Shown piece by piece: positions 1,276 through 27,822 of a stretch of 64,000 nt of DNA (positions are counted from its first letter, which is position 1; every line of letters begins with the position of its first letter). A program made the translations under genes and the position numbers. This stretch comes from Saccostrea cucullata (taxonomy: Eukaryota), in assembly GCF_032062105.1 (NCBI RefSeq), contig NW_026934500.1, positions 310,001 through 374,000 on the forward strand, read 5' to 3'. The notes beneath the pieces are model-generated. The model searched no databases, was not told the DNA's origin, and was given only the letters and a program-made list of their open reading frames with translations.

Positions 1276-3433
1276 CAATAGGTGCAGTAACCGAGTGTTT
1301 ATGTGTTGGTCTAGTATGGTGAGTATGTGATTGAACCCTTGTAGTATTTGTTGTGATCACGTGATGAGATGACGTTGTTGGAACAGTTGAAATTGCTGGT
1401 CTTGTGAAATTATGCCAGGAGGACAATTCAAACATTGCATAGGGTCTGGGAGCTATAGTCGAACACAGCTATGAAAAATAGAAATCAAATGTTCTTATTA
1501 ATGTACAATGTATACATGAATATTTTTTTAATTAAAATCGGGCTTTATGGAAGATTTGATCACTGTGTGCCACAAGCCTCTGACGAGCCAGGGAAAATGT
1601 TTTGCAGACGCATCCCAATAAAACTCATTGTAAAAATGGGGGGCACAGTGCTATCATTTTTTGAGTTTTATTGGGATGTAAAACGGGTTGACACATGACC
1701 TGATACCTTATTACTTATGTTTACATTTGTGATTTATTCATACTTTAAATTTGCCTGATTGTGACTTTTAACGTGTGAAATGCATTATTTTTCAAACCCA
1801 ACGGCATGTATGTAATCCAACGCCCGTCGACTCTTTATGACGTCACTGAGAAATTACGTCGAACGTTTATCCATACGCACATCTATGACCTCTTGACCCC
1901 GTACCTGTATTTACACAGTTATAAAAACGCTTGCTTTCAGTAGTGTTATATAAAGGAAAACATTTGCAAATGTAAATATTAGTGCATGATGAGACATTGG
2001 GGGACACAGTGTATGATGAGACATTAGGGGACGCAGTGTTTGATTATACACTTGGGGACGCAGTGCATGATGATACACTAGGGGACGCAGTGTTTGATTA
2101 CACCAGGGGACGCAGTGTTTGATGATACTTTAGGTAACACAATATATAATGAGACCCCAAGGGACGCAGTGTATGATGAAAAACCAGAGGATGCAATGTA
2201 TTATAAGACACTAGGGTTGCAGTACATGTATATGACGAAACATTGACGGGGGGGGGGGGGGGGGGCAGTGTATGATGAGACATTGGGGGTGCATTGTATG
2301 CTGAGACATTTGGGAACGCAGTGTATAATGATACAGTAAGAGGCACTGAAATGCAATAAATATGGAGATAATGTAGAGTATTCAAGCCCAAAGTCCTTTC
2401 AAACAATACAAATTGGGAGCAAACCAACACGCCGACCTCCAAAAACATCAGGATGGGATCAGGTGCAATGGAGGAGTGAGCAGCTCGGCCGACAGGCCAC
2501 AGCCTGTGTGTCTTCTTGTTATGATCGGGGGGGGGGATACAAAAATCCGTAGACAAATTGCAATTCAGTGTGTAAATAATGGCCAAACAATTAGTATAAA
2601 AATGTCAGTCTGCATCTGACCTAATCATAGGTTGTATTTCCAGACAGGCTCATTCACAGGGGCCTGTAACATACTGTATTTGATTTTACATAATCACTCT
2701 ATGTATACAAAAAGAGAAAGGGAAACAACGTCAGCTCGAATTTACACAGGGTCGATCTCGGAAATAACTCGTGTTTTCAATAAAATACCTTGCAGTTAGT
2801 GAAATAACGTCTGGGATCATTAAGTAATAATCACTCTTTAATAAAAATACCATCGCGGTCATTTAAGAATCGTGTAAGTCGTGTTTTGCTGATCCGATAT
2901 CCTGTCATGCAAGTGATGTAGTTTAAGTCGTCCACTAAATTCGCTAAACATTGCATCCAATATTTAACGCGAGATGTGATTGGTCAATGGTGCTTTTCTA
3001 CAACAGATCTGACCAATCACGCTCCGCTTTTTACCAATCATGGATTTTTCCAAAATGTCGTCTGTTCTGGGCTCGAGCCTTTATTCAAATCGAAGATGTT
3101 GTACCTTTTAATTGCAATTAACAAAAGAAAAAGATGATTTTCGTGAACGCTGGATCTTTACATTGTGTTTTTCATCTCCGGAAAGACTTCAAAACTGAAG
3201 AAAATATGCGAATTTTGCCTCGTTTTAGTGGACGACTTAAAGTACATCGACTCGCACAACGGGATATCGAGTTAGTATTACCCAACTTAAACGCTATAAA
3301 AAGTAACGAGGTTTCTGTCTTATTAAAGGATATTTATTGTAGTATGATTTCTAGTTATAATTTAATTGGCTACATTCTTTTTTCTATGAAATACGAAATA
3401 TTTTCGAGATAGACCCTGTGTAAATGACCCCTT

Positions 3434-3514
<81 letters not shown>

Positions 3515-6500
3515 TACGTAAAATCAAAAACAGTAAAAATCGACCATAAAACTTGTGAAATGATGGACAGGTTTTAAACGAATCTTTTGATATCCTTATT
3601 TCTTCAGCTGAACTTGTATGTCAACATAATTAACTAGCATGTTGACATAAATATGTTGCATGTCTACATCATTATGTTGCATGTTAACATAATTTATCTT
3701 GTATGTAGGGGGCAGAAATATGCCACCATACAGCTGAGATACAAAAACCCCATATGCAAGAGATTAGGATATATCTAAGAATATATTGTTAAATGTAAAA
3801 GTAAGGGAAATCGACAATTGAAAAGTTAAAGTAATCAAGTTTTCCCCTAAGCTTTGTTGATAGGTCACCATTACCATCTTTTCTAGTAAAATAATCAAAA
3901 TTAATATGAAAAAGATGTTTCAGACTCTGTGGTATCTTAATTCAAGCTTGCTGGGATATATATCTACTTAATTGTTTTAAGTGATAATCATGGTCAAGAT
4001 GAGACTAGAGCAAGTTGTTTTTCTTTCTCATATAGAAATTTTATTCTGTTTCATATGAATACAAAAATAGTCTGCTTATAAGGAAGAGAAATTGGTACCC
4101 GTGGAAATTTGAACAGATTGTTGGAAGACCGATCTCCAAAAACTACAAAGATGTTGTCAATCAGAAAACAAAAAAGAGAGCACAAGATGGAAAGGAAGAG
4201 TGTCGGAACCTTGAAGAAATCAAAGAGACTGTTCATCATAGTTCAACATAGTGTAAAACCACGGGAACATCTGAAGGATAAGATGGCTTCAATGAGTCCA
4301 AAGATCAAAAACGTGTTGTCAGTTAAACAAAAAGCCTGTTTCACGAGGACCTTGCACTAAACTTAATCATCAAGGGATGACCGGGCCAAAGGTGAAATTG
4401 CACTTAATCTTCTGGGTATTTGGCAAAACCATAAGCTTTGTTTTTGTCAAAGTCATGGGAATTTTGTGACGAGTTCTATCCCAAATAAGTGACCTCTCAA
4501 TTGAAACTCAGATCTAGATAGATAAATTATAAAATTTATTACAAAAATAATTTGCCTGTATAGGCACGACTTATTAAAAGTAGCGCTAGCCACGAGACTT
4601 ACAATTCACCACTTCAATATTTTGATTGCTCTACTTTAAATTCGACATGCATACTAGTACGAGCATGTGGTATAGATGTCAAGATTGTTAATCAGTAGTG
4701 TAAATTGTTGTACCTGTGAATGAATACATCCTGTGGAAAATATTCGATCCCCAAACTCATAAACCTCTGTTATATGGCAAACCTAGAGAAATAAAACTTT
4801 AAATTAAGGAAATTCACTGGTGTTATTCGTCATGAAATAATAAAGCTGCATCGAATGACTTGCATGCTATGGTCAACAGAAAATTTTGTTTTAGAAAACT
4901 GAATGATTGATTCACTGTACTATACTACTAGTATTTATACAGAATGAGAATTAACATTATCTTCAATATTTAAGAGAAACAAAGAAAGTATGGTTACCTC
5001 CGATTCTCTACAGTAGGTTATCGTCTGGCAGTCTGAAGCGTTACGTATCTGAGTACACCCTAAACACACGGGACCTCGGTTAACCGGAAACCCTATAAGA
5101 TAGGATATTTACATTGTCATCGGTAAACTTGATTTCTTTTTCTTTTTTCAAGAAAAAAGGGATGTTTGAAACTTTTTGTTAAGAACTTAAGACTCAATTG
5201 TGGATTGAAAATTACAGAAAAAAAAGAATAAACAGAACTGTATAATTACTTTTATTACATTTTCAACTGTGAAATACCGTAATTTATCCATTGAATAAAA
5301 GTGATATCCTGTCACAGTGTGAAAGGATATCAAAATGATTTGTCACGGTCAAATGAAAGAATATCAAAGTGCGGGAAAATCACCAAAAGTGTTGTTAAAA
5401 ACTTTGTTATAAGTTAGAAAACGAGTTTATAAATCATTTAAGGAATGACTCTAATTCTTGGCCAGATTATCGAGTATAATATGGTTTGGGTCAGTTTACG
5501 CTTTATAATCCGCGAAGCGGATTATAAAAAGCGTACCCAAACCATATTAACTCGATAATCTGGCCAAGATTTAGAGTCATTCCTTATTACTTAATTAAAA
5601 AATAATGAAACAACTGTGGATGTAAAATTTTGTTGCTTTTTATGAGTTCAAATTTACCGCGCAATAATACAACCGTAGTAACTGAAGTGATGGGAAGCGA
5701 GGGGAAAAAAGATACATAGATCTAGCAGCCATGATGCTTGTTTACATGAGGTAAGATCGAGCAACTGTTTGAAGTTAAAGGTACATTCATTATATATACT
5801 GGAAATGAGGGGATTGATGGATACAGATGATTCAGCTGGTTATGTGTTACCAAACCAGATTATACAAAATGTTATGCGTTCCTTTTTGGAAATCAACCAA
5901 TGAGAGACAAGAATACAAACAGAATTAAATTATTCTGTCATAAAATAAAACTGCGAAAGTTCCCCAAATATGTTGCTGAAATTCAAGTTTACAATGTTTT
6001 TCCATAGCTATGACGTCTCAATCGCTCAACTATGACGTCATATACCTAAGACTGCATCACAAAAAACACGTAGGCAACCGGAAAATCAAAGAAAATGTAA
6101 TAAACAGAAAATTCAATGTTTTGTAGTGAATAGATTTATTAATTAATATGCACTTGAAATATCCCATCAATTCTCTATATATACATATAAATATTATGTT
6201 GTCAAGGTTATTTTCAACTGGTTTTTAGAATGTTTAATTTTTTAATTTAACTTTAAAAAAGAATTTCCTTTTAGATTTATTAATTAATATGCACTTATAT
6301 CCCACCGTCAAATAATACCAGTATTCATTTAGTAGTACTAATATGACTTAAAATTTTGAAATCCATTTTAGTATAAACAAGTGTTGACATAAGAAAGTTC
6401 TCCCCAGCTCGAGTTTATTAAAATGAAAATATAGATATTAATTTTAAATGTATAAATAAAATTGACAAACCTGGTTCGCCACAACCTTTCGAGTTGCACA

Positions 6501-7036
6501 GATTCGAGTTGCAACATTCAGTGCAAGTTATCGTCTGCATCAATCCGTTTGTATAGGCCGTTATAGAACCGGTGGAATTCTGTCTCACGCATACCTGAAA
6601 AAAAGATTTTAAATCTTCAAAATCAATTTATTTTTTACATGTCCTGAAAACATTTTTTTCAGCAAATACATGTAAATGATCTCAATAAATGTATTATAAC
6701 AATTCATATTCAAAATTCATTAAAATTTATAATTTATGGCAAGTGTCTCAAATGGCCCCTTAAAATGAATTATCTTAATTTTACTTTAAATATAGCTTTA
6801 ATTTGTATAGCTCTACATGTGACCTTTATTGCTCATTTTCAATTTGACCAAAATAATTTAGAAATATGACATCATTAAGGCTCAAGTGAGCTTTTTGATC
6901 AAAATTTGCCCGTTGTTTGTCGTCGTTGTTGTTGTCTTGTCGTAACCTTTTCATACTTTCATCTTCTTCTCAAAAATCACTGAGCCAATTTCAACCAAAC
7001 TTGCTACAAAGTATCCTTGGGTTAAGGGGATTCAAT

Positions 7037-7069
<33 letters not shown>

Positions 7070-10000
7070 AGGGAGATAATTATGAATTAGTGATAAATTA
7101 ATGGTATTTTTAAAAAATCTTCTCAAGAATCAGTGGGCCAGGAAAGAGGAAACTGATGTAGAAGCATCCTCTTATAGTAGATTTTCAAGTTTGCTCAAAC
7201 TATGACCCCCGGATGTAGGGTGGGGCCACAATATAGTATAAAAGTTTAGCACAGGAATACATAGGAAAAAAGTTCTTCTCAAGAACCACTGGGGCAGGAA
7301 GGATGAAACTCATGTTGAAGCATCCTATGGTAATGAAGATTCAAGTTTTACGAAATCATGACCCCTGGGGATAGTGTGGGGCCACAATGGGGTATCAAAG
7401 TTTAACATAGGAATACATAGGAAATAATCTTTTTCTCAAAGACAGCAAAGTCGTGAATGGTCATAGTTATATGGAAGCATCCTCTGAAAGTGTATATTCA
7501 AGTTTGTTCAAATCATGACCCTCGGGGGTAGGGGCGCAACGGGGGATCAAAGTTTAACATAAGAATACATATGAAAAATATATAAATCTTCTTCTCAAGA
7601 ACAACAAAGCCATGATTGGTCATAGTTAAACGGAAGCATCCTCTGGTAGTGAAGATTCAAGTTTGTTCAAATCATGACCCCTGGGGCAAGGGTGGGGCCA
7701 TTATGAGTGATCAAAGTAGGATTACGAAGAAAAAAAAAGCATTTTTAGGAAGTATAGATTTAAGTTTGTTCAAATATCTCCCTCCCCCTCCTCCCTCGAA
7801 CCCGCTTTTATAATATATTTAAAATTTTCAATACTAAAGTTAAACTAATTTTTCGCCGATGCATAGCTAGTTGCTCAGGTGAGTGATGTTGCCTCTAGGC
7901 CTCTTGTTATTATAAACAAGAGGCCTCTGGTAGTGAAGATCCATTCGTTATTATAAATAATGGGAGGATAATTCCATTTTTCGAATGTTCATTCCATATT
8001 GGATCCAAAAAGTTCTCTTATAGAAATCAAAAATTGTTTTCTCGAGTATAAAGTGTTTTGCATCACATATAAGGGTTTATATTATACATGTAAGTAGCCT
8101 AATTTTCTCACATCATTCAGCATACATCCTGAGTTGTAGCGAATTCCATCGGATGAAGCAACTTTTTCCACGAAGCAAACCTAAAATTAGATAACAACAA
8201 GTGTTTAACTTTGACAAAGTGCAGTATTTAAGGTATATTGAACAAATTTTTACTGCAGAAATACTGATACCAAAGTGACAAGATTAATTTCGCATCTGCA
8301 ACAAATATATTATATATTCATAACTTTGACCATTCAATCAATTCAAAACATTCATTATTAAGTATTTTTCTTCTATTTTTTACTTTCTTTTATGAAACCA
8401 TATTACACCTCAAAGGTTTATGTCTTGAAATTGCCATTTCTTTATAGCCCTTGACTGCAAACTATTTAATTGGCTGTTATCCATGGTCCATATTGTCAAT
8501 TCTTGTCTAGTAGTAAATAAAGTTTGCCATTTGTGGATTATTTTTTTTATTCACCTTTTCATTTTCATGCAAAATCCAGATATTTTATGAGCAAAAGTAT
8601 TTTGCTGCTTTATGTGACCATAGTTCTACTTGCCTCGTTTTCAGCACAGTAGGTGATACCGTGACAGTGACGTGGTTGAATGACGTTGACACACTGCAGA
8701 CACATCAAGGCTAATCCTGGAAAGAAACAAGTACAAGCAATATTATACAAAAAATCTTCCTCCATTGTTTGCAAATGCAAAGTAAAATTAAGTGAAAAGA
8801 CTTTTGAAAATATAATTGCATTTGAATTCATTCTGACTGTACAATATATATTTTTCTGTCGAATATTCCTGATAATCACTTTTTTAAATCACAACAAAGT
8901 TTACTGTTTCTATCTCTATATATTGTTTATAATTGTCACGTATTTTGTAAATAATACTTTGTTGTTTTCTTGTATCATTTAACCTTAAGCATAATAAATC
9001 AATGCACCTTTTAGCTTAAGAAAAGTGAACTTTTAAAGAAAATTTAGTAATTTAAATTTAAATTGTACTTCGGTTTTAAATCACCTTATCGACTCCAAAA
9101 TAGAAAAACGAAACGCAAAATAAAAATTGAAATTAAAAAAAATCTAACCATAAATAAGCTACATATCTTAAGGTAGGTCACTCGTCAGCTATTTGGAAAA
9201 GTTCACGCAGAACCTCTTACTTCAAAACTATTTATCAATATTCCATTTTTTAAACATATTTAATTTCAACAAAGTTATTGTTATAACATTCAACAAAAAA
9301 ACTGCTCAAAAAGCTACAAAGAAACAAGATTTTTGAGGGACTATTTTTTGTGGTGGAAGGATATTTAGCAGATAATTCTGCAAATCTGCACATTTATTAG
9401 ATTTAATATCTTAGACTTTTAGCCTCACATACTTTTACTCGGAGAATATTTTCCATTATGATATTGCTAGGAATATTTAATAGAGGTCTTAATTTATATT
9501 TTTAGAAAAAGTTTTACACTTCCTTCAACAAACATTGCCAAAAATGAAGATATGTCAAATAAGTCAATATAAAATTAACACCATTTTTTGCCTGAAAATC
9601 ACATATTTTGACCAATATTTCAAAATTAACATCACTGACCCCAACTTTTTCTTTCATTATTTTAAAGTACTCGATACTTGTGACTGATCAGCACTTAAGT
9701 CGTAAAAAGCTTGATATAAGAAAATCTTTTATTGCCTATTTAGTTTTTTAATACCCCAAAATATGTTACTTTTTAGTGCAAAAAGGTCACACAATAATTT
9801 ACGCGCATTAATTTGCAAGATTTGTTCAATGATGAATATTATTCAAAATATTTTAAGCAAAATAAGATATGTTTTGCCATGGTTACATCTGATAAAATAT
9901 AATAAAGGCTTAAGTAATTAACCAACGAGTTAAAGTTTAAGTGCAAAAAGGTCAACTTCATTGTACCGTAAATCAGTAAGATGAACACTGACCCCCTTTT

Positions 10001-10895
10001 TTCTCCGCGATTTTGAGTCACTCTAAATGAGTACTTATCCAAAATATACTTCTCAATAAATCCTTGATTTAACAAATTTCACGAGTGACATACCTTAAGT
10101 TGTTTTTTATTCTGACAATTATTCTTACCTTGTGACAATTCTGCACTCAGTAAAAGCAATATTGAAACCAGATCTAAAATATTTTAATACATTCATCACT
10201 TATTATTTAAACGTGATGACATCTCATGAATTTCTCTCACTTATGAAGCAATATTCCAATATCATCTGTATGAGGTTTTTGTCTCCTATTTGAATTTGAT
10301 CTTCGTTTGATTAATTTAAAAAAAAAACGATTAATTATCGATTATTAACCCACAAATTAAAAAAAAAGCACATCAACAGTTTCGTTTGAAATTATCATTT
10401 TGGAAGTCCTATAGTCGATACAATGATCTAATCAATATAATACATCTCTCATTATGTCAAATCCCGACTGACGGTTTCATACTTAATGTAAGGCCAATTT
10501 TCATACAATAAAACCTCGGATTTTCCCTTTTACCAATCATTACATGGGGCGGGTGTGACCGGTCTGTCCATAGAATGCTTACTCCTCCATGGCACTTGCT
10601 CCGTCTAATATGTTTTCAGAGGTCCGTATTTCCTTCGCCCCAAATGTGCATTGTTTATATGAACTGTAAACTTGAATGCTATTCGTTATCTCCATATAAC
10701 ATTATGAAGAAAGCACGTGGAACTTAAGAACTTCTAATGTACCAGAGAAGAAAATAATTACGTAGTATGCATATTTATAAATTAAATGTTTCATACAATG
10801 TATGTTAACAGAGTAATACTAAGAAATAAGTAGTTATGACTAGTATGATTTGTTTCTTATTATATTATTGAGATCACTTACAACTTACTGTTCAT
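1276..10895 (-). CDS. Paralog A: secreted tandem three-finger (Ly6/uPAR-like) protein with His/Thr-rich insert; possibly truncated or pseudogenised at the 3' end
   Basis: Hand-assembled exons with consistent phases: putative ATG micro-exon 10895-10889 (tentative); signal exon ~10173-10129 (LVSILLLLSAELSQG); 8716-8634 (LALMCLQCVNVIQPRHCHGITYCAENE, GC donor); 8180-8112 (VCFVEKVASSDGIRYNSGCMLND); 6594-6471 (VCVRQN...TCTECCNSNLCNSKGCGEPG); 5092-4998 (FPVNRGPVCLGCTQIRNASDCQTITYCRESE); 4782-4714 (VCHITEVYEFGDRIFSTGCIHSQ); 1468-1276 (LCSTIAPRPY...Thr/His-rich...APIG). The likely next exon starts at 312 and has an early TAA. Confidence 0.8.
1981..2345. repeat. ~29-bp minisatellite (gcagtgtatgatgagacattgggggac) with an internal poly-G run
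   Basis: About a dozen degenerate tandem units are visible; poly-G at ~2248-2265. Confidence 0.85.
2365..4165 (-). mobile_element. Degraded Penelope-like retroelement (RT remnant plus 3' tail) interrupted by younger insertions
   Basis: The minus strand near 4050-4165 reads FLIDNIFVVFGD..FQQSV..GT....ADLFLYSYE-like across frameshifts. The 3' tail at 2365-2640 matches other copies in the window. Confidence 0.75.
2673..3535. mobile_element. MITE with TACTGT...ACAGTA ends and ~90-bp TIRs; a (TA)n expansion sits in the right TIR
   Basis: tactgtatttgattttacataatcac...agaaaggg...tttacacagggtcgatctcggaaata is mirrored at 3400-3535; (TA)n at ~3441-3509. Confidence 0.75.
5439..5586. repeat. ~148-bp hairpin palindrome with GCGAAGC apex
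   Basis: taaggaatgactctaa...atcc-gcgaagc-ggat...ttagagtcattcctta; the arms are nearly perfectly complementary apart from one short bulge. Confidence 0.9.
6877..7908 (+). mobile_element. Helentron/HINE-type non-autonomous element carrying ~165-bp satellite monomers
   Basis: 5' box ggctcaagtgagcttt plus a gtc/gtt microsatellite, tandem monomers (ttcttctcaagaac...gattcaagtttgttcaaatcatgacccc), and 3' box caggtgagtgatgttgcctctaggcctcttgtt. This resembles oyster Cg170-bearing HINEs. Confidence 0.8.
9172..10094. mobile_element. Non-autonomous DNA transposon with TTAA target duplication and GG...CC ends (Kolobok-like)
   Basis: ttaa|ggtaggtcactcgt ... acgagtgacatacc|ttaa. Confidence 0.8.
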
Positions 10896-11360
10896 TGTAC
10901 GGCGTTTTATAGATAAGAAGAGAAACTGATATGCATTGAAATTCTATACATTGTCTACTTCGATCAAGGGATTTGAAATGGAATACACGGAGATAACGAA
11001 CAGTATTCGAGCTCAAAGGTCCATTTAAACAATACAGATCAAGAGCAGAGCAAATAAGAGTCCTCTAAAATATCAGAGGTGGGATCAGTTGCCATGAAGG
11101 AGTGAGTGTCCCCTTCCAACCAGTCACACTCACCGTGTGTTCCTTGTCATGATCGGGAAATAACGGAAAAATCGATGGACAATTCAGTGTGTAAATAATG
11201 GTCTAACAATTAGTATGAAGAATGACAGTACATTTGACTTAATGATATATTGTATTTTCTGACAAGGTAATTGAATCGACCATAGAACGTACGAAAGGAT
11301 GACTTTAAACGAGACTGCTGATATTCGTGCTTCATCAACTTGTTTGTCAATAACTTACTT
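10430..11360. mobile_element. Two convergent Penelope-like 3'-end fragments (+ 10430-10700; - 10985-11360)
   Basis: ggcgggtgtgaccggtc...atgcttactcctccatggcac on + and its reverse complement (gaggtgggatcagttgccatgaaggagtgag) downstream. Confidence 0.7.
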
Positions 11361-11857
11361 CCTTTTATTAATTGTAATTATAAGGTGCTAGTACGTTACA
11401 TATTGTGTGTATGTATATATTATTGACCTTTCAAAGGCTTCCTTGATTAAAAAATCATACTGCATTAGAAATATTTCATACGGGTGGCAGTGAAATATGG
11501 GTTCTTACTAGTTTATCGGCGTTAATGCACTAATGAAAGGAAGAAACCAGAAGTTTTTTCTAGACTGTAGCTCTATTGGTTTGTGCTTATAACAAAGGAA
11601 GAGAAAAGTAGAGGCTGAGACTTGAAACTTTGACCTGTAGAGCTAAAAATCGACAAAATTTAAGTAGATGTAAAATGTTGTAACTGACTTTGATGATTAG
11701 TTAACTTTAATCTTAATTACATCAATTTAATCATTATTCATCAATTCTTTTTGCCATCTTTAACGACAAACCAGAGTCGAAAATCAAGTTTTAATTCATT
11801 CCAAGGAATTATATTAATTTTTTACAAGGAAAAAGCCCCGGAATGGTCGAGGCTTCA

Positions 11858-14800: not shown

Positions 14801-15036
14801 ACTCCTTACTTCGTGACTCTAAAAAAAAAAACCATGTTGCAGTAAAACGCCCTAACCACTGCGTCACGCAGGGCTTTCCAAAACAATTTGTAGGAGTACT
14901 TAAGGGATTTAAAAGAAGGCAATAAAAAAAATTATAGACTTTCTTATACGCACCTCATCCTCTGCACAGTAAGTTATACTGTGACAATGGCGGGGCTGGA
15001 TAGAGCCTCTACAGGATAAACACATTAGTGACAGAA
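11858..15036 (-). CDS. Paralog B: tandem three-finger (Ly6/uPAR-like) protein with basic Thr/Arg mucin-like insert and GKR/RHKR sites; 5' exon(s) not resolved
   Basis: Exons 15036-14954 (LSLMCLSCRGSIQPRHCHSITYCAEDE), 14365-14297 (VCFVERVESLYGVRYNTGCLQRQ), 14178-14055 (VCIEQN...TCTECCDTDLCNAKGCTEPG), 13117-13017 (YPPLSSRGPVCLACTQHFDSQECRQIAHCRDSE), 12577-12509 (LCFIKEESEFGDKVYSSGCMPFQ), 12421-12025 (QCISIV...TTRTTRLPT repeats...PIVGKRDNNRHKRFTSCEHCCRGDLCNDVCVHY), 11907-11858 (SKITPTPHYYTGSPSG*). All introns are GT-AG and in phase. Confidence 0.85.
14560..14875 (-). mobile_element. tRNA-derived SINE
   Basis: The minus strand has A-box (gcagtggttaggcg) and B-box (ggttcgaaaatcc) motifs; body and tail match the copy at 63085-63308. 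Confidence 0.7.
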
Positions 15037-17601
15037 CTGAGGAAGAAATACAGAAGTACTGGAATAAACAATATAAACATACAGAATTCAAATTCTCAGT
15101 AGAAATTATTCTTAGCGTTTTCTCAGTCTAAAATTTAATTCCAAAATTTCAAATTTCTGATTTAAAGCAAGATTTTTTCAAATACAAAACCACTTTATAC
15201 CAAGTTTGATCGAGAATATGTTGAAAAACACAAGAATGAGCAGCATTTCTACAAAAGTAAATAACAATTGTTAAACGTTGATATCATTAACAAACCTGTA
15301 AGCCACAGTATTGTAATTTTTGATTAAGATATAATATGTGACTTAATGTTTTAGCTATCTGTAGCATACAAACAGATACTGGCTTACCGCTCTTCTTTTT
15401 GGCAAAATACACATTCATAGCTGTAACATATTTCCTTCATAAATCACAAAACATCGTTTTTGATTTTAAACTTCTCTTTCAGATAATGGAAACTGCAGGA
15501 AGCAGGTCTATAAAAGGCACAATATTATTATGGAAAAGGAATCGCAGAGGTGTAAAACGTCAGACAGACTTTTACTTATACTTACTCGATCGTCCATAAA
15601 AAGTAGGTCAACACAGGTGAGTACCTTTCGATAGCGACTGTATTTTGACTTTAAGATCGCCTGTTTGTGTCTAAGTACAAAGATCACTTTCTCCTCTCCG
15701 AATTTCTATGTTAGAATAATTTTGAAAGTTAATGTAAATGTTTCCGGTCCATTTTCAGTGACTGGGTCATATTTTGAAGGGACGTTAAACGTTTTAATTG
15801 TTTAAATTAAATTCGCCCTACCGAATACTTTCACTGAGTAAAATTTGACCCAAGCTCAATTTCCTCGACAAAAAATAGCATACAAAGTCCTTGAATGGGA
15901 AAGAATTCAAGAAAAAAGGAAAGAAATTAATAATTAACATAGCTTAAATATGTTTAAAAAAGAGTGACCTCGTATTTGAACCTGTTTTTTTTTTGTAACT
16001 TGACAGTTTTGACATAAGACTTTTTTACTTAATATTAAATGTTTCTTGATACATATATACTGCTCTTACCCAAAACTGTTCTTAGACCAAGAATATTAAC
16101 TGATATCATACATGGCTACAACAAGGGTTTGATTGTTTTTCATGACTCATTTCAATAACCTGACTCTTTTTGTTATGACCTAGAAAGTTTGAGCGAACCA
16201 TCTATTTGGCTGATTGTCTGTCCACAATATTTTTTAAAATTCTATTCCGTTGTTATTTTGTTCATATTTCGATGAAAATTGGTCCTGTAGACTAAAAGTG
16301 TTGCAATGATGGTTTATCAATTTTAAAATATTTGTGAAACCTTTTGGAAAACTTATCTTCTATAGTTTTGTCTTATTTGAAAAAATTTTGGTGCGCAAGT
16401 ACTGGTATTCTTCCCTACGATATGATGTTATTTACACTAATTGTCAATTATATATTGTCGTTTGGATGTGTGCATGCATCGCTTCATTAACAAGTATGAT
16501 ATGCTTGATGTTTAGTAGGAGTGAAATAGACAATTTAATATAAAAATACCATATTTTTCCATTAACACCATTTGCAGATATGTTTTTATTCATATATCAA
16601 TGCAGAATGCAGAACTCATAAAAACACTACTTAATGAAAAGCAGAAATAGCTTAATTTCTTGGTCTTTAATTTGACATTTAAATCTATCGATGATGATTC
16701 ATCAACTTACAAATTTATTTTCGTTTGTACATTAATTCGACTTATAATTTGAACTAGAAATAAAGACACCACAGGGTCTGACGATTTTATATTTAGATAT
16801 TTTACTAGACTGTAAAGAGAAATACACTTACGACAAAATAGCGAGAAAACTTTTTAATTAACCATATATTTTACTCCTTACCTGATACTATATTTTACCT
16901 TTCGACCGTTCCTAACACTCCTAATATGACCTTGGAATATCAATTTTAAAAATTCTGATGTCCATAGTGGTGACATATTAAAAGAACACACTGGTGTTAT
17001 ATATTTAATTTCCTATTGTACATATTCATCTCATTTTCATCATTGCTTTCTTTATAGCCAAACGGTTTAGATTGTATTTGATCTTCGATTTTTTTTTCTT
17101 TTGTATTTTCTCGGATTGTGTCCATTCGACTACACGCAGTCACATGAGAGTTGTCTAGAACCGTTGAATTGTAAATAAACTATTGGGATTAGGAGTAAAA
17201 TATTTGGTTTTTAACTGATATCATGGGATACTTACTCCCCCTAGGCATCTGATCCCATCTCTGTCATATCCAACGGTTCCTGTTTATGCATGCTCACGAT
17301 TTGCTTTGTTTACTGCATTTATGTGATTATCCGTTTTACGTTATTATCATCTCTTACACATTAACTTATTTATATTTTTATTGCATCCCCTCATTCAGGG
17401 GAGTTTAAGCTTAAATACAGAAAGTTAAAGGAAACATTCAAATTAACATATTTCACAGTGAAAATTTTTAAACACTAGCTTAACACCGATAGAAGGCTTT
17501 GTTTTCAGTGGAGTCTACATTTCAGCTGTTCAATTTTTGATCCATACGTGAAATACGTTTTTTACTTTTTATACATTGTTGATTGTTTAAAACACTGATC
17601 A

Positions 17602-18866
17602 CTAATGCGTTAATTTTAGCCCCACTGGATATCCATATCCTTGATTATGCTTAAAACCATACGCCATTAGTCCAAATGGATGTCCCTGTAAATTTTCTAC
17701 ATCATGGGAATGCAGTTGACTCAAAGGAATATTTATTACAACGTAGGGTGACCCATTTAAGGCAATTGTTTCCAGAGTAGCGTTAATTTGATTAAACGGT
17801 TTGTCGTCAAGGACAAGTCCCCCTTCTTGGCCCTTCTTTGTAATAATGGAAATGAAATGTTTGTATTCACCATCATCAGAAACACTGAAGTGATAATCGC
17901 TTTTGAATTGCTGGATAGCTGGGGTAACTAACATTGCACCACTAGCGTTCTCCTTTACCGGTTTCATATCTTCAGTCATTTGGAGTACGAGAATTGGCTT
18001 ATTGCTCGAAATACAAATTGATTTGTTAGTCATTGTTTCGAATTCTTTGAAAGATCCTGCTGTCGGAAGATTTACAATTTTACCGTTTACGGCCACTTGC
18101 GTTCTGTCCTCTGAAGCAATAATCTTATAAGTAAAGGTTTGTCTGTTTTGCAGCTTTGGAATTATGAAATCTGTACCTAAAGCATCTGTAGGTGGAATCA
18201 TTTGTATAACCTTTTGAGTCTCGCAGTCTTGAGTACATACTGTTGATGGAATAACTGTTGATTTAGCTCCAGAAAAAACAGCCACTGGTTTGGAACTATC
18301 GATTACTGTACCTGTCAAATCGGTTCCATTGACCTCTAGTTGAAAAGTCTCGTACTGATTTAAAGTTATGTTGAAGCTTTCCCCATTTTCATATCGGTAG
18401 TTTCTCCATGGACTTATATAAACATATCTGTTTTTGTCCTCGAGTCTGAGGTTAAATCTTACTTTTGTGTCATTATGTAGCGCTACAACAGTAATAAAGG
18501 AGGGGCTGTCCTTCGTTCCTTTGGCTGATGCTGCCACGTAACGGTTAGACAAGTCAGGGACAGGAATCACAGAGAAGGCAGTGTCACTACCATTTCTATA
18601 CTCCATTACATGGACAGATATGTTAACGTTAGATTTGACGTAAATTCCTTTCTGTTCATTCCAAGGCACTGAGGTTGCAGTGGATGGATCTAACGATATA
18701 ATGTTTCTACCCTTTGTTAGAGTGGTATTAATGAAGGATTTGGTATTTTCAAAGTAAACACTGATCATTCCATTATTAGGGGAGGTAATCACCATGGAGA
18801 CATTATCTGCATTCTGTAGATTTTTGTGCTTTGACAAGGCAAGTAGAAACTCTGAACCAGATAGGC
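17602..18866 (-). CDS. Terminal exon of paralog C: IgGFc-binding protein (FCGBP) N-terminal-type domain
   Basis: 421-codon exon with family motifs LNQYETFQL, DLTGTVIDSSKPVAVFSG, QMIPPTDALGTDFIIP, ISSNKPILVLQ, PAIQQF and PFGLMAYGF...GYGYPVG; acceptor caatttag at 18867. Confidence 0.88.
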
Positions 18867-21800
18867 CTAAATTGAATAAAGACGTGTGAAGACGATATGA
18901 AATATACATGTAGTGATTGGAAGTTAACATTTTACAAGAAAGTTAATAAGAACAAAGAAAATAACTTCATTTATTTGTGGATATATGAATGTCGCCCCCT
19001 TTTTTTGCATTACTTGGCGAGGAAAAGTTAGAAGACTGCAGGGAAAGGCATTTTTAAGTTTAAAAGGTTTTTTAGCAAGGTCGTTTAAAGACGTATACTG
19101 CACCTGTATATGTAACTGGAAATGCTGTTGGTTTTGTTGTTGTAGTCCTGGAGGTAGTTGTAGTAGGATGTGTGGTAGGATTGGACGTGGTACGAGTAGG
19201 AGATGGTGTGGTAGGATTGGACGTGGTACGAGTACGAGATGGTGTGGTAGGATTGGACGTGGTACGAGTAGGAGATTGTGTGGTAGGATTGGACGTGGTA
19301 CGAATAGGGGATGGTGTGGTAGGATTGGACGTTGTACGAGCAGGCATATGCGTGGTAGGATTAGATGTTGTACGAGTAGGAGATGGTGTGGTAGGATTCG
19401 ACGTGGTACGAGCAGGCGTATGTGTGGAAGGATTAGATGTGGTAGGAGTAGGAGATGGTGTGGTAGGATTCGACGTGGTAGGTGTGGACCTTGTAAGAGT
19501 TGATATAAGTGTTGCAGATGTTGTTTGGTGATCAGTACTTGATGTAGGATTCGATGGCGGAGAAATGGTAAAGTAGGCTGGTGTAGGTGTTAAAGGACCT
19601 GTTCAAAATGAGGTCAAGAAAGATAAGCTAGGTGAGTTTTGTTTTAAATGTAGGAGGTATTTTGAACATACAAAAATGTTTTAATATTGTATGTTCAAAA
19701 TTCGTATTCTACAGAGAATAGAGAGTGGATTTCCTCTTTGCACTATGCTTGTTTTTGATTTTTCGACACGAATCCAAAGTAAAATTAGGTACACATTATC
19801 ATGGTTTTAATAAAATAATANNNNNNNNNNNNNNNNNNNNNNNNNNNNNNNNNNNNNNNNNNNNNNNNNNNNNNNNNNNNNNNNNNNNNNNNNNNNNNNN
19901 NNNNNNNNNNNNNNNNNNNNNNNNNNNNNNNNNNNNNNNNNNNNNNNNNNNNNNNNNNNNNNNNNNNNNNNNNNNNNNNNNNNNNNNNNNNNNNNNNNNN
20001 NNNNNNNNNNNNNNNNNNNNNNNNNNNNNNNNNNNNNNNNNNNNNNNNNNNNNNNNNNNNNNNNNNNNNNNNNNNNNNNNNNNNNNNATACTAAAAAAGA
20101 ATTAATCTTTTAGCTTCTGTTATACTGCATTTCAAATAAGCTTTATAGTTAATGCTTTTTAAAAAAAATATTAATGGAGGTACTGTACTATTAGGGCTGC
20201 ACAAATCATTGCAAAGATCTCCCCTGCAACACACATGACAGGAGATGAAGCGCTTCCGTCTACCATTCAAAATGGCTGCCCTATATGATGGAGAGGCCGG
20301 CGTATTTTTGGAATCTGTAAGTTTTATTGCAGATAGAAATTGAAAATTCGCACTCACACAATTCATTAAATTTCTTATTTGTTTACTTGTAACCTTGTAA
20401 AATCTCAAAAACTGTGATGAGTTGATAAGATGCAAACCAAAATTTGTAATCGTAATTAAAATTGATATTTTTTTCTTTTATCTTTAACATTTCTTAGAGC
20501 AGAATTTGTGAACTTACCAGTGTATCCCTTTACAAGAAAGTTACTTTGATCAGACAAAATTGATATTTCCGTAATGTCAGGAAAATTTGAGGTTAGTGGT
20601 AAGGAAGAGTACTTTGAAGATCCATCGACCATGTGGATAAATTGGTCGGTTATCCCGGTTGGGACAATTTTTGAGGTAGGAGGTAAGTTTGTAATTAGTC
20701 CATCAACCATATGTATATTGCTGTCTGTTATTCCGGTTGGTACTTGGGTTGAGTATGGCGAGTTGGATGTTGATTCATCAACCATATGTATATTGCTGTC
20801 TGTTACTCCGGTTGGTACTTGGGTTGAGTATGGTGAGTTGGATGTTGATTCATCAACCATGTGTATATTGTCTGTTATCCGGTTGGTAATTGGTAAGTTG
20901 GATGTTGATTCATCAACCATGTGTATAATGCTATCTGTAATTCCAGTTGGTACTTGGGTTGAGTGTGGTGAGTTGGATGTTGATTCGTCAACCATATGTA
21001 TATTGTCATCTGTAATTCCAGTCGGAACGACTGTGGAGTATGGAGACAAAGTGATAGTTGATCCATCAACCATATGAATATTGTCATCTGTGATTCCAGT
21101 TGGTTGATCAGTTTCAAATGAGGTTACTGTTGTGCCTATAGTTGTTCTTGTTTGAAGGGATATCGTAGGTTTTTCTGTCTTTGAAGGTCTTGAAAAGTGA
21201 TGAGAATTAGACAAATCTCCAATTGCTTGGTTATTCTGAACTACACTCAGACATTGCTGCAAGAAAGCAGCGGATTTCAAACAACTAATATCACAATCAA
21301 TTATTTATCAATTCTTTTCGATAAAAAAAATCAAATTTATTACTTGAAAAGGCAAACATCCTGTTGAATAAATTTGGTCGCCAAATTCCTCCTCTTTTTT
21401 AATGTAGCATAGCTGAAAATTTATTAGGCATCTGTTATCTAATATTGCAAAAATACGTCATTAATTTATCAAAGAATATACAATAAATTATATTGTACCT
21501 CAATACTTATGTTTTGATCTATTAATATATGAGATGCAAATTAAAATTTCTTTGGAGTACTTTATCAGATTTATTTAAAAAATATCTTATGAATACATTA
21601 ATAGATTAGGTCTTTAAGCATTGAATCTTGAGGCACAAGTTTGTAATTTGTGTTGTTTATTACGAGTACCTCAGAGTCTCTACAGTGGGCAATCTGTCGG
21701 CACTCCCTTGCATCATCATGTTGGGAACAGGCGAAACAAATTGGACCTCTCACAACCGGATACCCTTTTTAATCGAATCATTTATTGAGTTAAAAATTAA

Positions 21801-24800
21801 GTATTTTGCTCTTTTATGAGAAAGGTTAATTTTTTAGAGCCATAGGATCACGTACATCATGTACATAATATTAATGTACAAACCGTGATCTTTTGGTGTT
21901 GGCCTTTACAATGTAATGGATATATGGGTTTATGGAGGATATAGAGGATGTTTACAGTACATACTTAGAAACTCTAGTGTTTGCCTTTGAAGATATAATA
22001 GTCATGAGCGTTCACTGGTAGTTGTTTAGTGAACATACCTGAATACTTTAGTGTTCGACATAAGGAAGAATATGTTGGATTTGTTGATGGGTTTTATGGA
22101 GGTTAGCGTACATACCTATATATACTTTAGTGTTCGTCTTATTAAAGAATATGTAGGATTTGTGGGTATTGTGGATGTTAGACTATATACCTGAATACTT
22201 TAATGTTCGCCTTAAGAACTAATAACCGTCTGTTCTAATATAAATTTTCACTTTTTTTTTTTTAAAAACTTTGATCTATTGCACCAGCTTCAGATGGAGA
22301 ACAATATGAGGTATGAAGCGCTGCTTATTTTTTTTTCATATTTGATTTTTATATCGAATCATGATATGAAAAAATCTTAACGCAGAAGATGGGAAAAATA
22401 ATGATTTATTTTCACAGCATAAAATTAAAAATATTAGTTTTATGAAATATATGGAGATAACGAACTATTTTCAAGCTCAAAATTTTATTTTACACATTAC
22501 AAAATAGGAGCGGAGTAAACACTGAATACCAAAACATCACAGGTTGGATCAGATGCCATGGAGAAGTGAGCATCCCCTGTCGACCGGTCACACCCGCCGT
22601 GTGCTTCTTGTCTTGATCAGACAATAACAAAAAACATCCATGGACAACTCAGTATGTAAAAAATAGACTTACAATCAGTATGAAAAATCAGTCATTTGAC
22701 TTAATGGTAAATTGTATTTGCTGACAATGTCATTGTGTTGACCATATTACTTACGAAATGATGACTGTAAAGGAGGCAGCTGATATTGTTGTTTCATCAA
22801 CTTGTTTGTCAGTAACTTACCTCGTTTTAGAAATTGTACATATGCAGAACATGCTCTTCCGTATCGAATCAACCGAGAGATATAAACTCCGTATGCAGGT
22901 GGCAGAGGTATACTGCTGCATAAGTAAGGAAAGTTGACGATTGAAAAGTTAAAGTCATCACGTTTATTATGAAGCTGTATATGAAAATAATATTTAGTAT
23001 CATGACTATCAATTTCATATTAGAAAACTTAATAAAGGGCTGCTTCGTAAGTCAGAATTTTACAATTTCGCAATGTAGTTCTAAGAGAAGAAAACATCTA
23101 GTAGCAAGAATTATCTTTCTTATGAATTTTTTTTCGTTGGAAAAAAATGTTTAAATCGAAAAAAAAAATCAAATTTGGTACTTAAAACATGAAACAATTT
23201 GTAATAGGTCCTTAAAAAGATAGAACTAATTTAAAAGACTTTTGATACTGAATCTAAATCTTTTTTGTTCAATACAATAAAAATGATTACAATTTGAAAT
23301 GTATAGGTAAAGGAAATTGAAGGTAATGTTTGCATCACATGTCAGTCAAGCTTGATCAAATTGACTGCTGAAATCTGATGATGAAAACTTTGATTAATTT
23401 TCGTATTTTACTTCGAAAGTTATCTCTCTTATCAGAGGGTCGGTACCCCTTAAGGAAGAATATGCTGGGTTTATGGGTGGGTATAATAGAGTTTAAATAG
23501 TGTACATACCTGAATACATGTACTTATAAATTTGTGTTCGCCTTTAGGAAGAATATGGTGGGTTTGTGGGTGGATATTAAAGGATGTTTAGTGAACATAC
23601 CTGAATACTTAAATGTTTGCCTTTAGAAGGAATATGTTGGGTTTGTGAGTGGGTATTATAGGATGTAAGTGTACAGACCTGGTTCCCCACAACCCTCTGC
23701 ATTACACAGATCGGACTGACAACACTCAGTACACGTGTACGGAACGGGGTTTCCTTCGCCATTATTTTTTATGACATTTGTTTTGTTTTGCTCTCTGCAA
23801 ACCTGAGTGTATAATTGAAAAAAAAATCAATACAATGTCAAAAAATATCATTCTAGATATGCAACAGCTTTTTAAAAATAAATATTTTTCAGAATCTTAT
23901 TTTTAAAAAAGGTTATCAATTTGTTAATTCAAGGTGCAAAATTAATAATTTTGATGCAACGATTCTTGAATACAAATAGAATTTTTACAATTTGGGCAAA
24001 GAGAAAAATTGAACCTTATTGACACAATGTGAAATACTGTAGAAGTACTTTTTTCCGCGTGGTATTAATTTACGCTATGTACGCGGTCACATATTTTTCG
24101 CGGAAATTTGTCCAAGCGTACTTAATATAAATGCAAGGCATAGAGTGACAGTCTAAGAAATCCGCGTACTTTTCAACCCGCGGATTAAACGGAAGTTGAG
24201 ATTCCGAGGAATTATGACCCCGTAGAAAAAAGTATGTCAACAGTAATTGTAAATGTCAAAAAAAAAAAACCTCAGAAAAGTACTTGCTCTGTTTTGGAGA
24301 CAACCCATGTTGTATCTGACGCCAAACATAGACTCCATTCTTTCAACAAAACACACCTATTAAGAAGAGAATTCTAAAAAGCAGCAATGTTGCGAGTGAA
24401 CACAGAACAGTCAATAAGATCATTTTATAATGATAATTTTTTATAAGACGACGTCTTGCTAACAGAAAATGTAGAAATATTGTATTCTATTGCTACTACT
24501 ATTTTGTGTTTACTTTCGAATTTTAACCAATCATGATTATAGTGTTTTATGAGAAAACAAGTCAAGAAAATTCATGTATCTGATACTTTGAAAATATGAA
24601 TTCTGGAATCTGATAAATTTTTAAAAATAAAAAGCTCTAAAATGAAACAAATTTGCAATTCTTGTTATATTTTTTAGATCTATACTCTTATAAAACAGCC
24701 TAAAGATGTTCTTTAAAAAAAAGTGAAAATATGTCTTTAAAATTATTTTTTACTGACCTCGTCCTCGGCGCAGTAGGTTACTGTGTGACAGTGCCGAGGT

Positions 24801-27800
24801 TGTACTGCGTTGTTACACTGCAGACACATCAAGGAAATCCCTAAATTCAAACTCTTATTCCAGTCATCCAGTTCTCAAGTCAATATAGCTATGTACATTG
24901 GTGTTTTGCAAAATCGATATTAGTATTACAATGTCGAAAAAATTACAATTGAGTGTTTACTTATTGACACCTAGATTTTGTAAGCTTTACAAAAAATGTC
25001 AAAAGTATAAAAAGATTTCATACCTTTGTCAAACTGAAGTAGGAGAACAAGCACGGTACATGTTATAAATTCTGTAATCATTAATACGATTGTGATGCTG
25101 ACATATGTTACAATTACAGAAACTAATTTAACTGTTCTGGAAAAGAAATTTGTGTTTTTTCATCAAATAAAGTTATATAACTGCAGTCAAACAAACAGCT
25201 CGAAGGAGTAATAGTTTATCGATTGAAAAACTTTCAATTATTATTAAAATAGTGATTATGAAAACTCTGTTGGAAGACTCAGGAGTATGGCAACAGTTAC
25301 ATCAATTACAGGCTCTAATACAAGATTCTTTTTTTGTCCCCATTCAAGTGATTAATAGTACAGACATTCAGTCCAGGTTAAAAAGGGGCCAAATATACAA
25401 AAGTTTACAAGGTAAGAATTTTTTGCTGTATTAATAATTACAAGAGACCCATGGAACGCATTGCTCACATGAGCATTTTGGCTAAGAAAAGTAGAAATCA
25501 GGGGCCCTTTTACAAAAGAACGTACGAATAAGACCATAAGCCTTGGTTGATTATAAAAAATAATTATTCTGTTTTTAATTTTATTTAAACAAGTATTGAG
25601 TATAACTAACGTATATTAAAGTATTTAAACAATAAAACTGAATGGTATAAGGCAGCATTTTTTTTAGTCTTACTATTGCCAATGGTATATGATAAGCCAT
25701 ATTACTGATATCAAGGTAATTCAGGTATCTGGGCTCTTCATATGTCCGGGACACCTGACAAATTGACTGGGAACCAAAGCCCAAAGGTACTAGTATATGG
25801 AAGCATCTATAGGGTAATATGATATTGTGATCAAAATTTTACAAAGAAATTTGTAGATAAAAACCTTTTTTTTCAAAAACAGCAAATCCATGATCACATT
25901 TTATGTGGAAGTATCCACAAATAGTATAGATTCAATTCATAACCCCTCCCCTACAAACTATTAACTACTGAACTGGGGTTTGTTTTACATAAAAACTTAC
26001 GACTAAGAACAAATTTTAATCCTGCATAATTTCTAATTAACATTATATTGACAGTGGTTTTAATCTTTTGAAAGGAATGTATTGAGTTAAGTTTACAAAG
26101 GCAATTTTAAACAGAAAATTTTTTTAATGCCCTTCCATTGAATTTGATCAAACTTGAAATACCTTTACCCGAGAGTACTTTGTGGCAAGTTTAATTGAAA
26201 TTGACCAAGTGGTTCTTGGGAGGAAGTCGAAAATGTGAAAAGTTTAAATGTTGAAAAGTTCATATTTTATTTATTTAATATATACAAGCTAAAAAAATAT
26301 TTTAAATATTGTACATGGCAGTTGCCAAATGGAAACAGACGTCAACGCATTTTTTTTTTAATTTTAATTCTTTATACCTGAAATGAGAAGAAAAATGTGT
26401 TATAGAAAACGAAAATTATGTCATTATTACGATTGCTTGATCTTTTATAAACCTTTTTTGAGAGTTTTACCAATTTTGCTGGATATTTAGTTTATTAATT
26501 GATAATTTACCTAGACAACGTCAAATTTTCAAGTCATACGTTTTGTGAAAACAGTCTTAAACGCGTATATTATTGACATAGGCTGGGGAAAAATGCATTT
26601 CATTACTGGTTTTCCATAAAGGTGTGGCTGTCTTTTGAGGGTTTTGTTTTAAGTGTTTATCCCCCTTGACAATTTAAACGCGTTAATGGACGTTGTCGGC
26701 TGACGTACTGTTCCAAACATTGCTACTGAAATTGGAATATCATATGGAAAGATGGAGAATATTTTGATATATGAGTGAAAAATACTTGAATATATTTAGA
26801 AAAGGGCAGCATTTTGTAGAATTAGTATTCGATTTGGTGAGATGCTTCTAAAACGTGACGTGACATGTCTAATTTGACGAAACTGATAGGTTCACAACTA
26901 TTCATTTTCAGAAACGTGTGACCTTGAAATTGGAACGTGGTGAATTTTCCAATATTGTATGCTTTCATATCGAAAAAATTTTAGAAAGAAAGGATCAACC
27001 CTCGTATATACAAGCTATTGTAAATAGCAAAACAGGTAAGATGCAATAATTCATGATGGAGCATTAATTACGATGTTTGAAATTTGTTGCAATTTTACTA
27101 TTTTAACTGAAAATTATAAAACAGGTAAGATGCAATAATTCATGAAGAGAGAAATTGTTGCAATTTTACTATTTCATCTGAAAATTATAAAACGAGAAAG
27201 GGAGAGTGAGGGGGAGAGAGTTAAATTTAACAATACTTACATTTCACTTTCTCTAAAGATTTAATAATAAATTTCAAAGAAAAAGACATAAAGGATTATA
27301 AACTTCTTCTGTTCATATTCAATTCAATAAAATTACTTATTAGAAGATTTAATTGAAGCCAAAATACTCTTCTGTCGCCCTGTATAAAAATTGATTTCTT
27401 AAAAATAATACTTTGCATGCCATAGCAGAGAATTTTTTAATCTTGCTGATCATAAGTATTTGAGTTTAAAATTACACAGAAAATCAACAAAGTGGCATAT
27501 TTTTAAATCAAAATATCCCCCACTCCAAAAAATATAGTTCGGGAAATATTGCTCAAACACCATTTTTATCATGAAGAGGAAGAGCGAGGTACATGTAAAT
27601 CTAGATCTATAGGCTGTTGTATTTTATGTCTTTATCAACAAGTTGCATATTATATTAAGATAAAGAACGAAGAATAATTTGAATAATGAATAATTGGGAA
27701 TCTATGTAACACTAGGCTTTAATAGGTTGGAAAGTTTGCAGTGACCTTTGCTGTTTACTCATTACATTGTTACCTACATTTTACGTAAGCAGAAAAAAAA

Positions 27801-27822
27801 TGAAGCAGTATCTACCTTTCAT
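17602..27822 (-). CDS. Paralog C: secreted mosaic protein (~1040 aa) of two three-finger-like modules, two mucin-like blocks and a C-terminal IgGFc-binding protein N-terminal-type domain
   Basis: Putative ATG micro-exon 27822-27816 (ATGAAAG|gt, tentative); 25071-25024 (EFITCTVLVLLLQFDKG); 24840-24758; 24356-24288 (GC donor); 23802-23679; 21764-21670; 21412-21344; 21256-20518 (acidic 25-aa repeats); 20314-20189 (ILNGRRKRFISCHVCCRGDLCNDLC); 19598-19104 (12-aa TTSNPTTPSPTR repeats); 18866-17602. Phases are consistent throughout; the N gap falls in the intron between 20189 and 19598. Confidence 0.85.
19821..20087. other. Assembly gap (N run) in an intron of paralog C
   Basis: 267 N bases. Confidence 1.
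21920..23678. repeat. Intronic 60-80-bp tandem repeat in two blocks (21920-22220, 23450-23678) separated by a Penelope-like fragment (22450-22970, minus)
   Basis: Unit agtgaacatacctgaatactttagtgttcgcctt..gaagaatatgttgg recurs in both blocks. Confidence 0.75.
24035..24245. mobile_element. Short MITE with TACTGT...ACAGTA ends
   Basis: tactgtagaagtactttttt ... aaaaaagtatgtcaacagta imperfect TIRs. Confidence 0.6.
25440..26295 (-). mobile_element. Degraded Helentron/HINE-type element
   Basis: acaagagacccatggaacgcattgctcacatgag terminal box and tggcaagtttaattgaaattgaccaagtggttct monomer remnant. Confidence 0.55.

Follow-up and report, generated by a model that had tools for sequence, protein, structure and literature searches.

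The minus strand of a 64,000-nucleotide stretch of the genome of the oyster Saccostrea cucullata (contig NW_026934500.1, positions 310,001 to 374,000, hereafter the window) carries, between positions 1276 and 27822, a tandem cluster of three paralogous genes, designated A, B, and C, whose predicted products contain Ly6/uPAR-type (LU) three-finger modules. Six-frame translation of this interval gives five CC..CN motifs, all on the minus strand, and 28 candidate exons, checked individually by their coordinates, were assembled into gene A (27822-17602), gene B (15418-11858), and gene C (10895 to beyond 1276), arranged head-to-tail. The exon sizes are 83/69/124/95/69 nt in A and C, and 83/69/124/101/69 nt in B. 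All 25 predicted introns end in an AG acceptor, 23 begin with a GT donor and two with GC, and the phases are consistent; exon 8 of C likewise finishes at a GT donor. Coordinates, splice sites, and phases bear out the preliminary description of this DNA, which had proposed three head-to-tail genes with matching exon sizes. A tblastn search of the 64-kb window found no fourth paralogue.

The twelve cysteines of a module occur in the order CxxC, C, C, C, GC, C, variable loop, CxxCC, CN, C. This pattern, previously ascribed to every module, is found in full in the two modules of A, the two of B, and module 1 of C, whereas module 2 of C has only seven of the twelve cysteines within the window. Phase-1 introns flank all five complete modules, which are encoded by three exons each, or four in the case of module 2 of A. 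Pfam searches with single exons gave no match for the LU module. The two GC-AG introns are placed differently in the paralogues (24287-23803 in A and 8633-8181 in C, both minus strand); the one in C, following exon 8716-8634 of module 1, is spliced in the RNA contigs of all four sequencing runs considered below.

Gene A (17602..27822, minus strand; 11 exons, 1039 amino acids) is defined by its phases, its splice sites, and the likely orthologues P0005, P0008, and P0173, and encodes, in order, a predicted signal peptide, LU module 1, LU module 2, a mucin stretch, and an IgGFc-binding domain. The start codon and a hydrophobic leader lie in exons 1 and 2 (27822-27816 and 25071-25024, minus strand); a similar leader is present in P0008, and the joints of these two exons are absent from the RNA joints listed. 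Module 1, with 12 cysteines, occupies 24840-24758, 24356-24288 (with the GC donor), and 23802-23679 on the same strand. Module 2 (20189..21764, minus strand) comprises 21764-21670, 21412-21344, 21256-20518, and 20314-20189; the third of these exons is a repeat-rich insert and the fourth the closing strand with CxxCC..CN..C, and the finger-III loop is about 269 residues long. The insert (20518-21256, minus strand) gives a weak DUF6926 match, and its imperfect repeats include a recurring Ile-His-Met-Val-Asp word that occurs in the Saccostrea echinata protein as well. A G-R-R-K-R motif in finger III (20250..20264, minus strand), three residues before CxxCC, is a predicted furin-type site. Exon 9 finishes at a phase-1 donor and is separated by a 267-N assembly gap from exon 10 (19104..19598, minus strand; 495 nt), which is Thr/Ser-rich and mucin-like (53% S+T), is present in P0001 and P0005, and resembles at its start the last exon of B. 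Exon 11 (17602..18866, minus strand; 1265 nt) encodes the IgGFc-binding (FCGBP N-terminal) domain (PF17517; E 1e-51, 176.5 bits against a cut-off of 25.6) and the stop codon. Given these two further in-phase exons, A is not the plain double three-finger protein that had been described, and its IgGFc fusion is a modest addition to what is known.

Gene B (11858..15418, minus strand) has 9 exons encoding 323 amino acids, with a predicted signal peptide, two LU modules, and a short polar tail; a Pfam scan gave no IgGFc-binding domain match in it. The finger-III loop of its module 2 is 113 residues long and contains G-K-R followed by R-H-K-R (12086..12115, minus strand), a predicted amidation-plus-convertase site and a furin-type site. 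The first eight exons of gene C (1276..10895, minus strand) encode a predicted signal peptide, module 1, and the start of module 2, for which the window holds the first seven cysteines and an insert. Position 1276, taken earlier as the left boundary, is a splice donor, and the gene continues past the left edge; no CC..CN exon of this module is found in positions 1-1275 of the window. In the public models P0001 and P0006, C goes on through dibasic sites and CxxCC to an IgGFc-binding domain (163.5 bits for PF17517 in its orthologue P0006). Of the three double three-finger proteins originally envisaged, only B fits that name, since A and, in public models, C carry the IgGFc-binding domain.

A profile of one exon recovered 9 proteins among 23 candidates, eight of them named from oysters. 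P0002 is the S. cucullata protein of LOC134240861 and contains exons 4-9 of B without a difference, while P0001, the 1750-residue RefSeq model of LOC134240877, contains exons 9-11 of A, five exons of B, and exons 2-8 of C letter-exact. Contrary to the earlier description, the genes are not hidden from annotation, since RefSeq holds the locus already, partly as a false fusion; overall, the gene structure of the preliminary description stands, and the extent and the hidden status do not. P0001 joins A's 3' half, the greater part of B, and C minus its first exon, reading through the stop codon of A. A single A+B+C protein was considered and rejected on the basis of that stop codon and of contigs, from three runs, covering the 3' untranslated region of A; B's own 5' exon and three separate S. 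echinata models also counter it, with no RNA joint shown for the B-C boundary. The fusion is likely an annotation error, and the locus yields a corrected annotation in which the 1750-residue RefSeq model is seen to merge three genes.

Likely orthologues, assigned by similarity and not by a tree, were found for A in S. echinata, Magallana gigas, and Ostrea edulis, for B in S. echinata, M. gigas, O. edulis, and Crassostrea virginica, and for C in S. echinata, where the A and C models have near-adjacent accessions. On synteny, judged from public models, the three S. echinata genes are on contigs of equal length, as are A and B in O. edulis and likewise in M. gigas. The O. edulis A isoforms P0009 and P0173 differ in that isoform X3 is without a 46-residue exon comprising the end of module 2 and the basic site; the counterpart of this exon in the window (20314-20189) is of phase 1-1, so in-frame skipping is possible. 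A literature search, with most subscription journals outside its coverage, found six of the accessions named in no paper, and the identifiers are absent from the supplements of PMC11432763 and PMC13070813, which may use other identifiers.

Transcription was assessed with contigs from four of the nine matching runs, representing four studies whose tissue is not stated; three of these runs are only guessed to be RNA. The contigs were aligned to positions 8000-27900, and most are 90-95% alike to the genome, which suggests that they derive from a relative. At least 8 of the 21 introns in this interval are seen in them, seven among the joints listed and the A10-A11 intron, which is seen as neighbouring pieces within a single contig (X4 record 17). 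The joints C2-C3, C3-C4, B5-B6, and B7-B8 occur in all four runs, and B3-B4, B4-B5, and B6-B7 in three. These contigs support the proposed junctions to that extent, and the remaining introns are neither shown nor refuted. In all four runs contigs depart from the genome at 19596 with 129-379 extra letters, a pattern that splicing to upstream exons would produce, the partner exon not being among the joints listed. Contigs of three runs extend beyond the stop codon of A into the 3' untranslated region, and a contig of B starts at 15611, with a 5' end of its own.

The structure of B was modeled with AlphaFold2 from an alignment of 95 sequences. Both modules are predicted with a local confidence (predicted local distance difference test) of 93-98, except for the loop of module 1, while the insert is low-confidence or disordered; after the basic motif, the strand 259-265 rejoins the sheet. 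The best Foldseek rows are uPAR, TEX101, C4.4A, PSCA, and Lynx2, and in a wide structure search LU or three-finger chains fill rows 1-39. Module 1 matches GPIHBP1 (Z 9.2, root-mean-square deviation 2.2 over 76 residues) and module 2 matches TGF-beta receptor II (Z 7.0, deviation 3.4 over 82 residues, spanning 95-279 including the insert). The model and the search rows agree for both modules with the three-finger fold proposed earlier, which is supported for B, as far as a predicted structure can do so, and would be shared by A and C, given their 48-58% identity. Against UPAR_LY6 (PF00021), B (P0002) scores 19.9 bits, below the curated cut-off of 24.8, and its orthologues P0004 and P0008 score 25.6 and 25.7; for Toxin_TOLIP, B reaches 19.7 bits against a cut-off of 21.2. 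An Argos-like two-finger fold, as outlined in the available text of PMC12236594, is not among the fold rows, an absence that says little. The ESM Atlas places molluscan LU clusters at 0.84-0.86, which is a lead only, and a homodimer prediction for B, made without an alignment, scored 0.06 and was counted neither for nor against.

All five complete modules contain ten canonical cysteines ending in CC-x4-CN. PMC6600238 (available text) defines the canonical ten of LU domains and how they pair, and by analogy with this family consensus the disulfides here would be 1-5, 2-3, 4-6, 7-8, and 9-10. Of 246 modules outside the oyster set, 225 have both extra cysteines, 20 have neither, and one has just one of them; the ten-cysteine core persists in the 20 modules that lose the extra pair. 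Given that the extra cysteines are gained or lost together, they probably form a sixth disulfide. That this bond arose to keep a cleaved loop in place was considered and rejected, no association with dibasic pairs being found (p 0.64). A hydrophobic tail of the glycosylphosphatidylinositol (GPI) type is absent from 10 of 10 oyster proteins, in which the best 12-residue hydropathy of the last 30 residues is 0.10-1.03, in agreement with what had been noted before. The hydrophobic N-terminal exons suggest that the proteins are secreted.

The module is not confined to oysters. A single-sequence search with it gave 326 clusters at E 0.001, 150 of them listed, and among 20 relatives looked up, all 15 with an organism name are from bivalves (clams, scallops, pearl oyster, mussels, and freshwater mussels). 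The family had been called lineage-specific, which holds at oyster level for the paralogues and at bivalve level for the module. A Pfam scan of 99 relatives, mostly the longer ones, identified as partner domains Fibrinogen_C (22), IgGFc_binding (14), Lectin_C (12), MIB_HERC2 (6), Ig (5), C1q (2), CUB (2), and MAM, SUEL lectin, and VWA (one each); the scallop protein P0024 has the same LU-LU-IgGFc order as A. The LU pair is thus a mobile piece that can head or end recognition proteins of bivalves. Mollusc genomes contain about 83 LU proteins each, with LU fused to C1q, fibrinogen-like, Ig, and MAM domains (PMC13719153, available text); the main text of that work, as available, mentions no IgGFc, cleavage, furin, amide, or bivalve-specific module, and its supplements may list such proteins. 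The available text of PMC10140915, on bivalve C-type lectins, likewise does not mention Ly6/uPAR, and the literature search, within the coverage given above, found no description of an LU-IgGFc fusion in oyster. In vertebrates, the IgGFc-binding domain is associated with mucus (PMC4948705, available text), and IgGFc-binding proteins are reported, citing earlier work, from oyster mucus and settling larvae in the available part of PMC6337334. The fold and the family are themselves ordinary, and the cluster consists of known domains.

What is worth testing is the conserved processing-type motif in finger III of the second module; neither this motif nor the IgGFc-binding domain figured in the preliminary description. 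A glycine followed by a dibasic pair is an amidation-and-cleavage signal, R-x-K/R-R is the furin consensus, and serine is usual after the basic pair at convertase sites. Counted back from CxxCC, positions -7..-4 hold R-x-K/R-R in all nine A (4) and B (5) sequences, which come from five oyster species, and the two C sequences have a dibasic pair at -5..-4. This register is kept although the mucin-like loop runs from 78 to 281 residues and does not align. The module 1 loops in the window have no basic motif and carry N-glycosylation sequons. The motif was also counted in relatives (142 proteins with 246 modules, 19 oyster A/B/C proteins and fragments being excluded). G-K/R-R occurs in 78 of the 246 finger-III loops, against a shuffled mean of 4.3 and maximum of 12, and in none of the 246 modules in finger I or II loops; its density is 17.3 per 1000 residues in finger-III loops versus 0.30 elsewhere. 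In 40 of the 78 modules the pair has another basic site after it (0.5 when shuffled), the residue before the glycine is I, F, V, or L in 71, and the commonest residue after the pair is serine (25 of 78). A single basic residue after hydrophobic-Gly is found in 94 of the 246 modules, against 78 with two. From this conservation, cleavage in the manner of prohormones is predicted, giving a domain of two chains linked by disulfides. No description of convertase cleavage or amidation of a three-finger domain, or of such a domain opened inside a finger, was found among literature titles within the same coverage, and mono- and dibasic processing in oysters is described in PMC4200219 (available text).

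The explanation that is favored, with somewhat better than even confidence, is that the cluster encodes three likely secreted proteins in which finger III of the second LU domain is cut by a convertase, giving a two-chain head piece for mucus. Beyond the motif itself, every step of this model is an inference. The LU pair would fold in the endoplasmic reticulum with five canonical disulfides and the sixth, and the Ser/Thr/Pro-rich insert would be O-glycosylated. Furin or a prohormone convertase would then cut after R-x-K/R-R; B and C would receive a further cut following G-K/R-R, which would leave an amidated N-terminal chain and free a short connecting peptide. The canonical 7-8 disulfide bridges the loop, so the two chains would stay linked once cut, held by this bond and the beta-sheet, and the glycosylated loop would become a free-ended brush. 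In A and C the second chain would bring the IgGFc-binding domain into the mucus layer, B being a head-only form. The recognition domains that the pair precedes are many and unrelated, so its likeliest role is a common one, for example attachment to mucin or to a cell receptor. The mucus or innate-defence role suggested earlier is plausible, and the predicted IgGFc-binding domain and mucin stretches strengthen it; that interpretation holds for the fold and the missing GPI tail and fails for the count of three double three-finger proteins. The broader claim that a bivalve three-finger domain matures like a prohormone, with finger III opened at G-K/R-R and a second site to yield an amidated domain of two chains and a freed connecting peptide, and that it acts on hundreds of secreted recognition proteins (fibrinogen-like, C-type lectin, C1q, and IgGFc-binding) as a common maturation switch or anchor, is put forward tentatively, and is rather more doubtful than the claim for the oyster cluster.

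Several observations weigh against these proposals. G-K/R-R is missing in 168 of the 246 modules and any dibasic pair in 117, and the furin consensus is not enriched outside oysters (6 versus 3.7 when shuffled). Given that the sequences are related, the counts show conservation and not repeated origin. Among modules that have the extra cysteine before CC, 117 of 226 contain a dibasic pair, as do 12 of the 20 that lack it. One O. edulis isoform model has lost the entire closing exon of module 2. Relatives show LU either before or after IgGFc, which is uninformative on the job of the pair. For the fold, Foldseek with the B model gave nothing at E 0.001 or better (best 1.7e-3), and most Z values in the wide structure search are middling. 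For gene A, one X4 contig is unspliced across the A8-A9 intron (20517-20315), and the A9-A10 joint over the assembly gap is not directly among the joints listed.

In a different, though unlikely, explanation, the proteins are secreted and mucosal and the basic loop remains uncut, acting as a polyanion-binding patch or luring trypsin-like proteases of microbes or the host. The B model, with its exposed, disordered loop, would suit this reading, as would the single basic residue after hydrophobic-Gly being commoner than the pair (94 versus 78 of 246) and the fact that processing is itself a prediction. Nonetheless, a binding patch would need neither the glycine before the pair nor the fixed register of R-x-K/R-R (9 of 9 A and B sequences), and the serine after the pair (25 of 78) is convertase-like.

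Cleavage could also serve ends other than a mucus head piece. That the proteins form a structural matrix for a larval adhesive or a shell organic layer, and not defence mucus, with processing serving matrix assembly, is improbable: long Ser/Thr repeats would be suitable, and six IgGFc-binding proteins specific to the settling Pacific oyster larva have been proposed as mucus or adhesive parts (PMC6337334, available text), but zonadhesin-like is the label given to five of the six, Ly6/uPAR is unmentioned in that text, lectin-type recognition domains are the commonest partners of the module, and transcripts come from four separate studies. The least probable of the readings considered makes the LU pair a secreted signalling modulator, a SLURP-like protein or growth-factor trap activated by cleavage, with mucin and IgGFc domains only setting its location. 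The near folds, which include Lypd6b, Lynx1/2, SLURP-2, and TGF-beta family receptor ectodomains, the lack of any other domain in B, and a type of processing typical of signalling molecules (PMC4200219, available text) point in this direction; identity to those chains is only 14-31%, a common fold proves no function, and fusion to many recognition domains better fits an accessory role.

If the cleaved, two-chain head piece is real, its reach would exceed this locus. Very large lectin-type families underlie bivalve immunity, and most of their accessory N-terminal regions lack annotation. A three-finger head shared among them, with its processing site, would tie these families to one maturation step, proteomics would know where to seek new termini and amidated ends, and recombinant lectins lacking the head or the cleavage may differ from the native form.

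Other features of the window were also noted. Dispersed repeats, both intronic and intergenic, at about 11000-11350, 22500-22970, 24030-24250, and 25930-26590 are covered by contigs to very great depth in each of the four runs and are probably non-autonomous mobile elements. A spliced gene at 58683-60582 (minus strand) has a hydrophobic leader and motifs that, presumably, place it near the CAP/SCP (CRISP-like) family, and three of its exon pieces gave no Pfam match. A tandem repeat at 50416-50982 has open frames on both strands, the plus-strand frame giving no Pfam match.

Compared with known systems, the oyster proteins differ from snake three-finger toxins, which are single domains of 60-75 residues, in having two larger modules within 323-1039 amino acids. 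By analogy with insulin-type prohormones, a connecting peptide would be removed between basic sites to leave disulfide-linked chains; the folds are unrelated, and the oyster processing is predicted only. Like the vertebrate multi-LU proteins (uPAR, C4.4A, CD177, TEX101, PINLYP), which supply top Foldseek rows, above E 0.001, the oyster proteins have tandem LU domains. In the vertebrate proteins the N-terminal domain has no 7-8 disulfide and several are GPI-anchored (PMC6600238, available text), whereas module 1 of A, B, and C retains all ten cysteines, including the 7-8 pair, and there is no GPI tail. FCGBP shares PF17517, well above cut-off here, and an association with secreted mucus; its domain is typically N-terminal (PMC4948705, available text), while here it is C-terminal, and there are no VWD-C8-TIL repeats among the Pfam matches and no VWD in P0001, P0005, P0006, P0008, and P0009. 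The C1q, fibrinogen-like, Ig, and MAM partners of the molluscan LU fusions of Paramonov et al. 2026 (PMC13719153) likewise occur among relatives of the oyster module; the IgGFc-binding fusion, the predicted cleavage, and the bivalve-specific module are not named in the main text of that work, as available. With Ly6/uPAR domains at large (PF00021) the oyster modules share the ten canonical cysteines, the asparagine after the tenth, the predicted fold, the phase-1 flanks, and the clustering of genes (PMC6600238, available text). They differ in the sixth cysteine pair, in having three or four exons per module and not two, and in finger III, modeled as a helix with a long disordered loop carrying basic sites. 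LU domains are mostly not mobile modules according to the available text of PMC6600238; in oysters and other bivalves this module is used as one.

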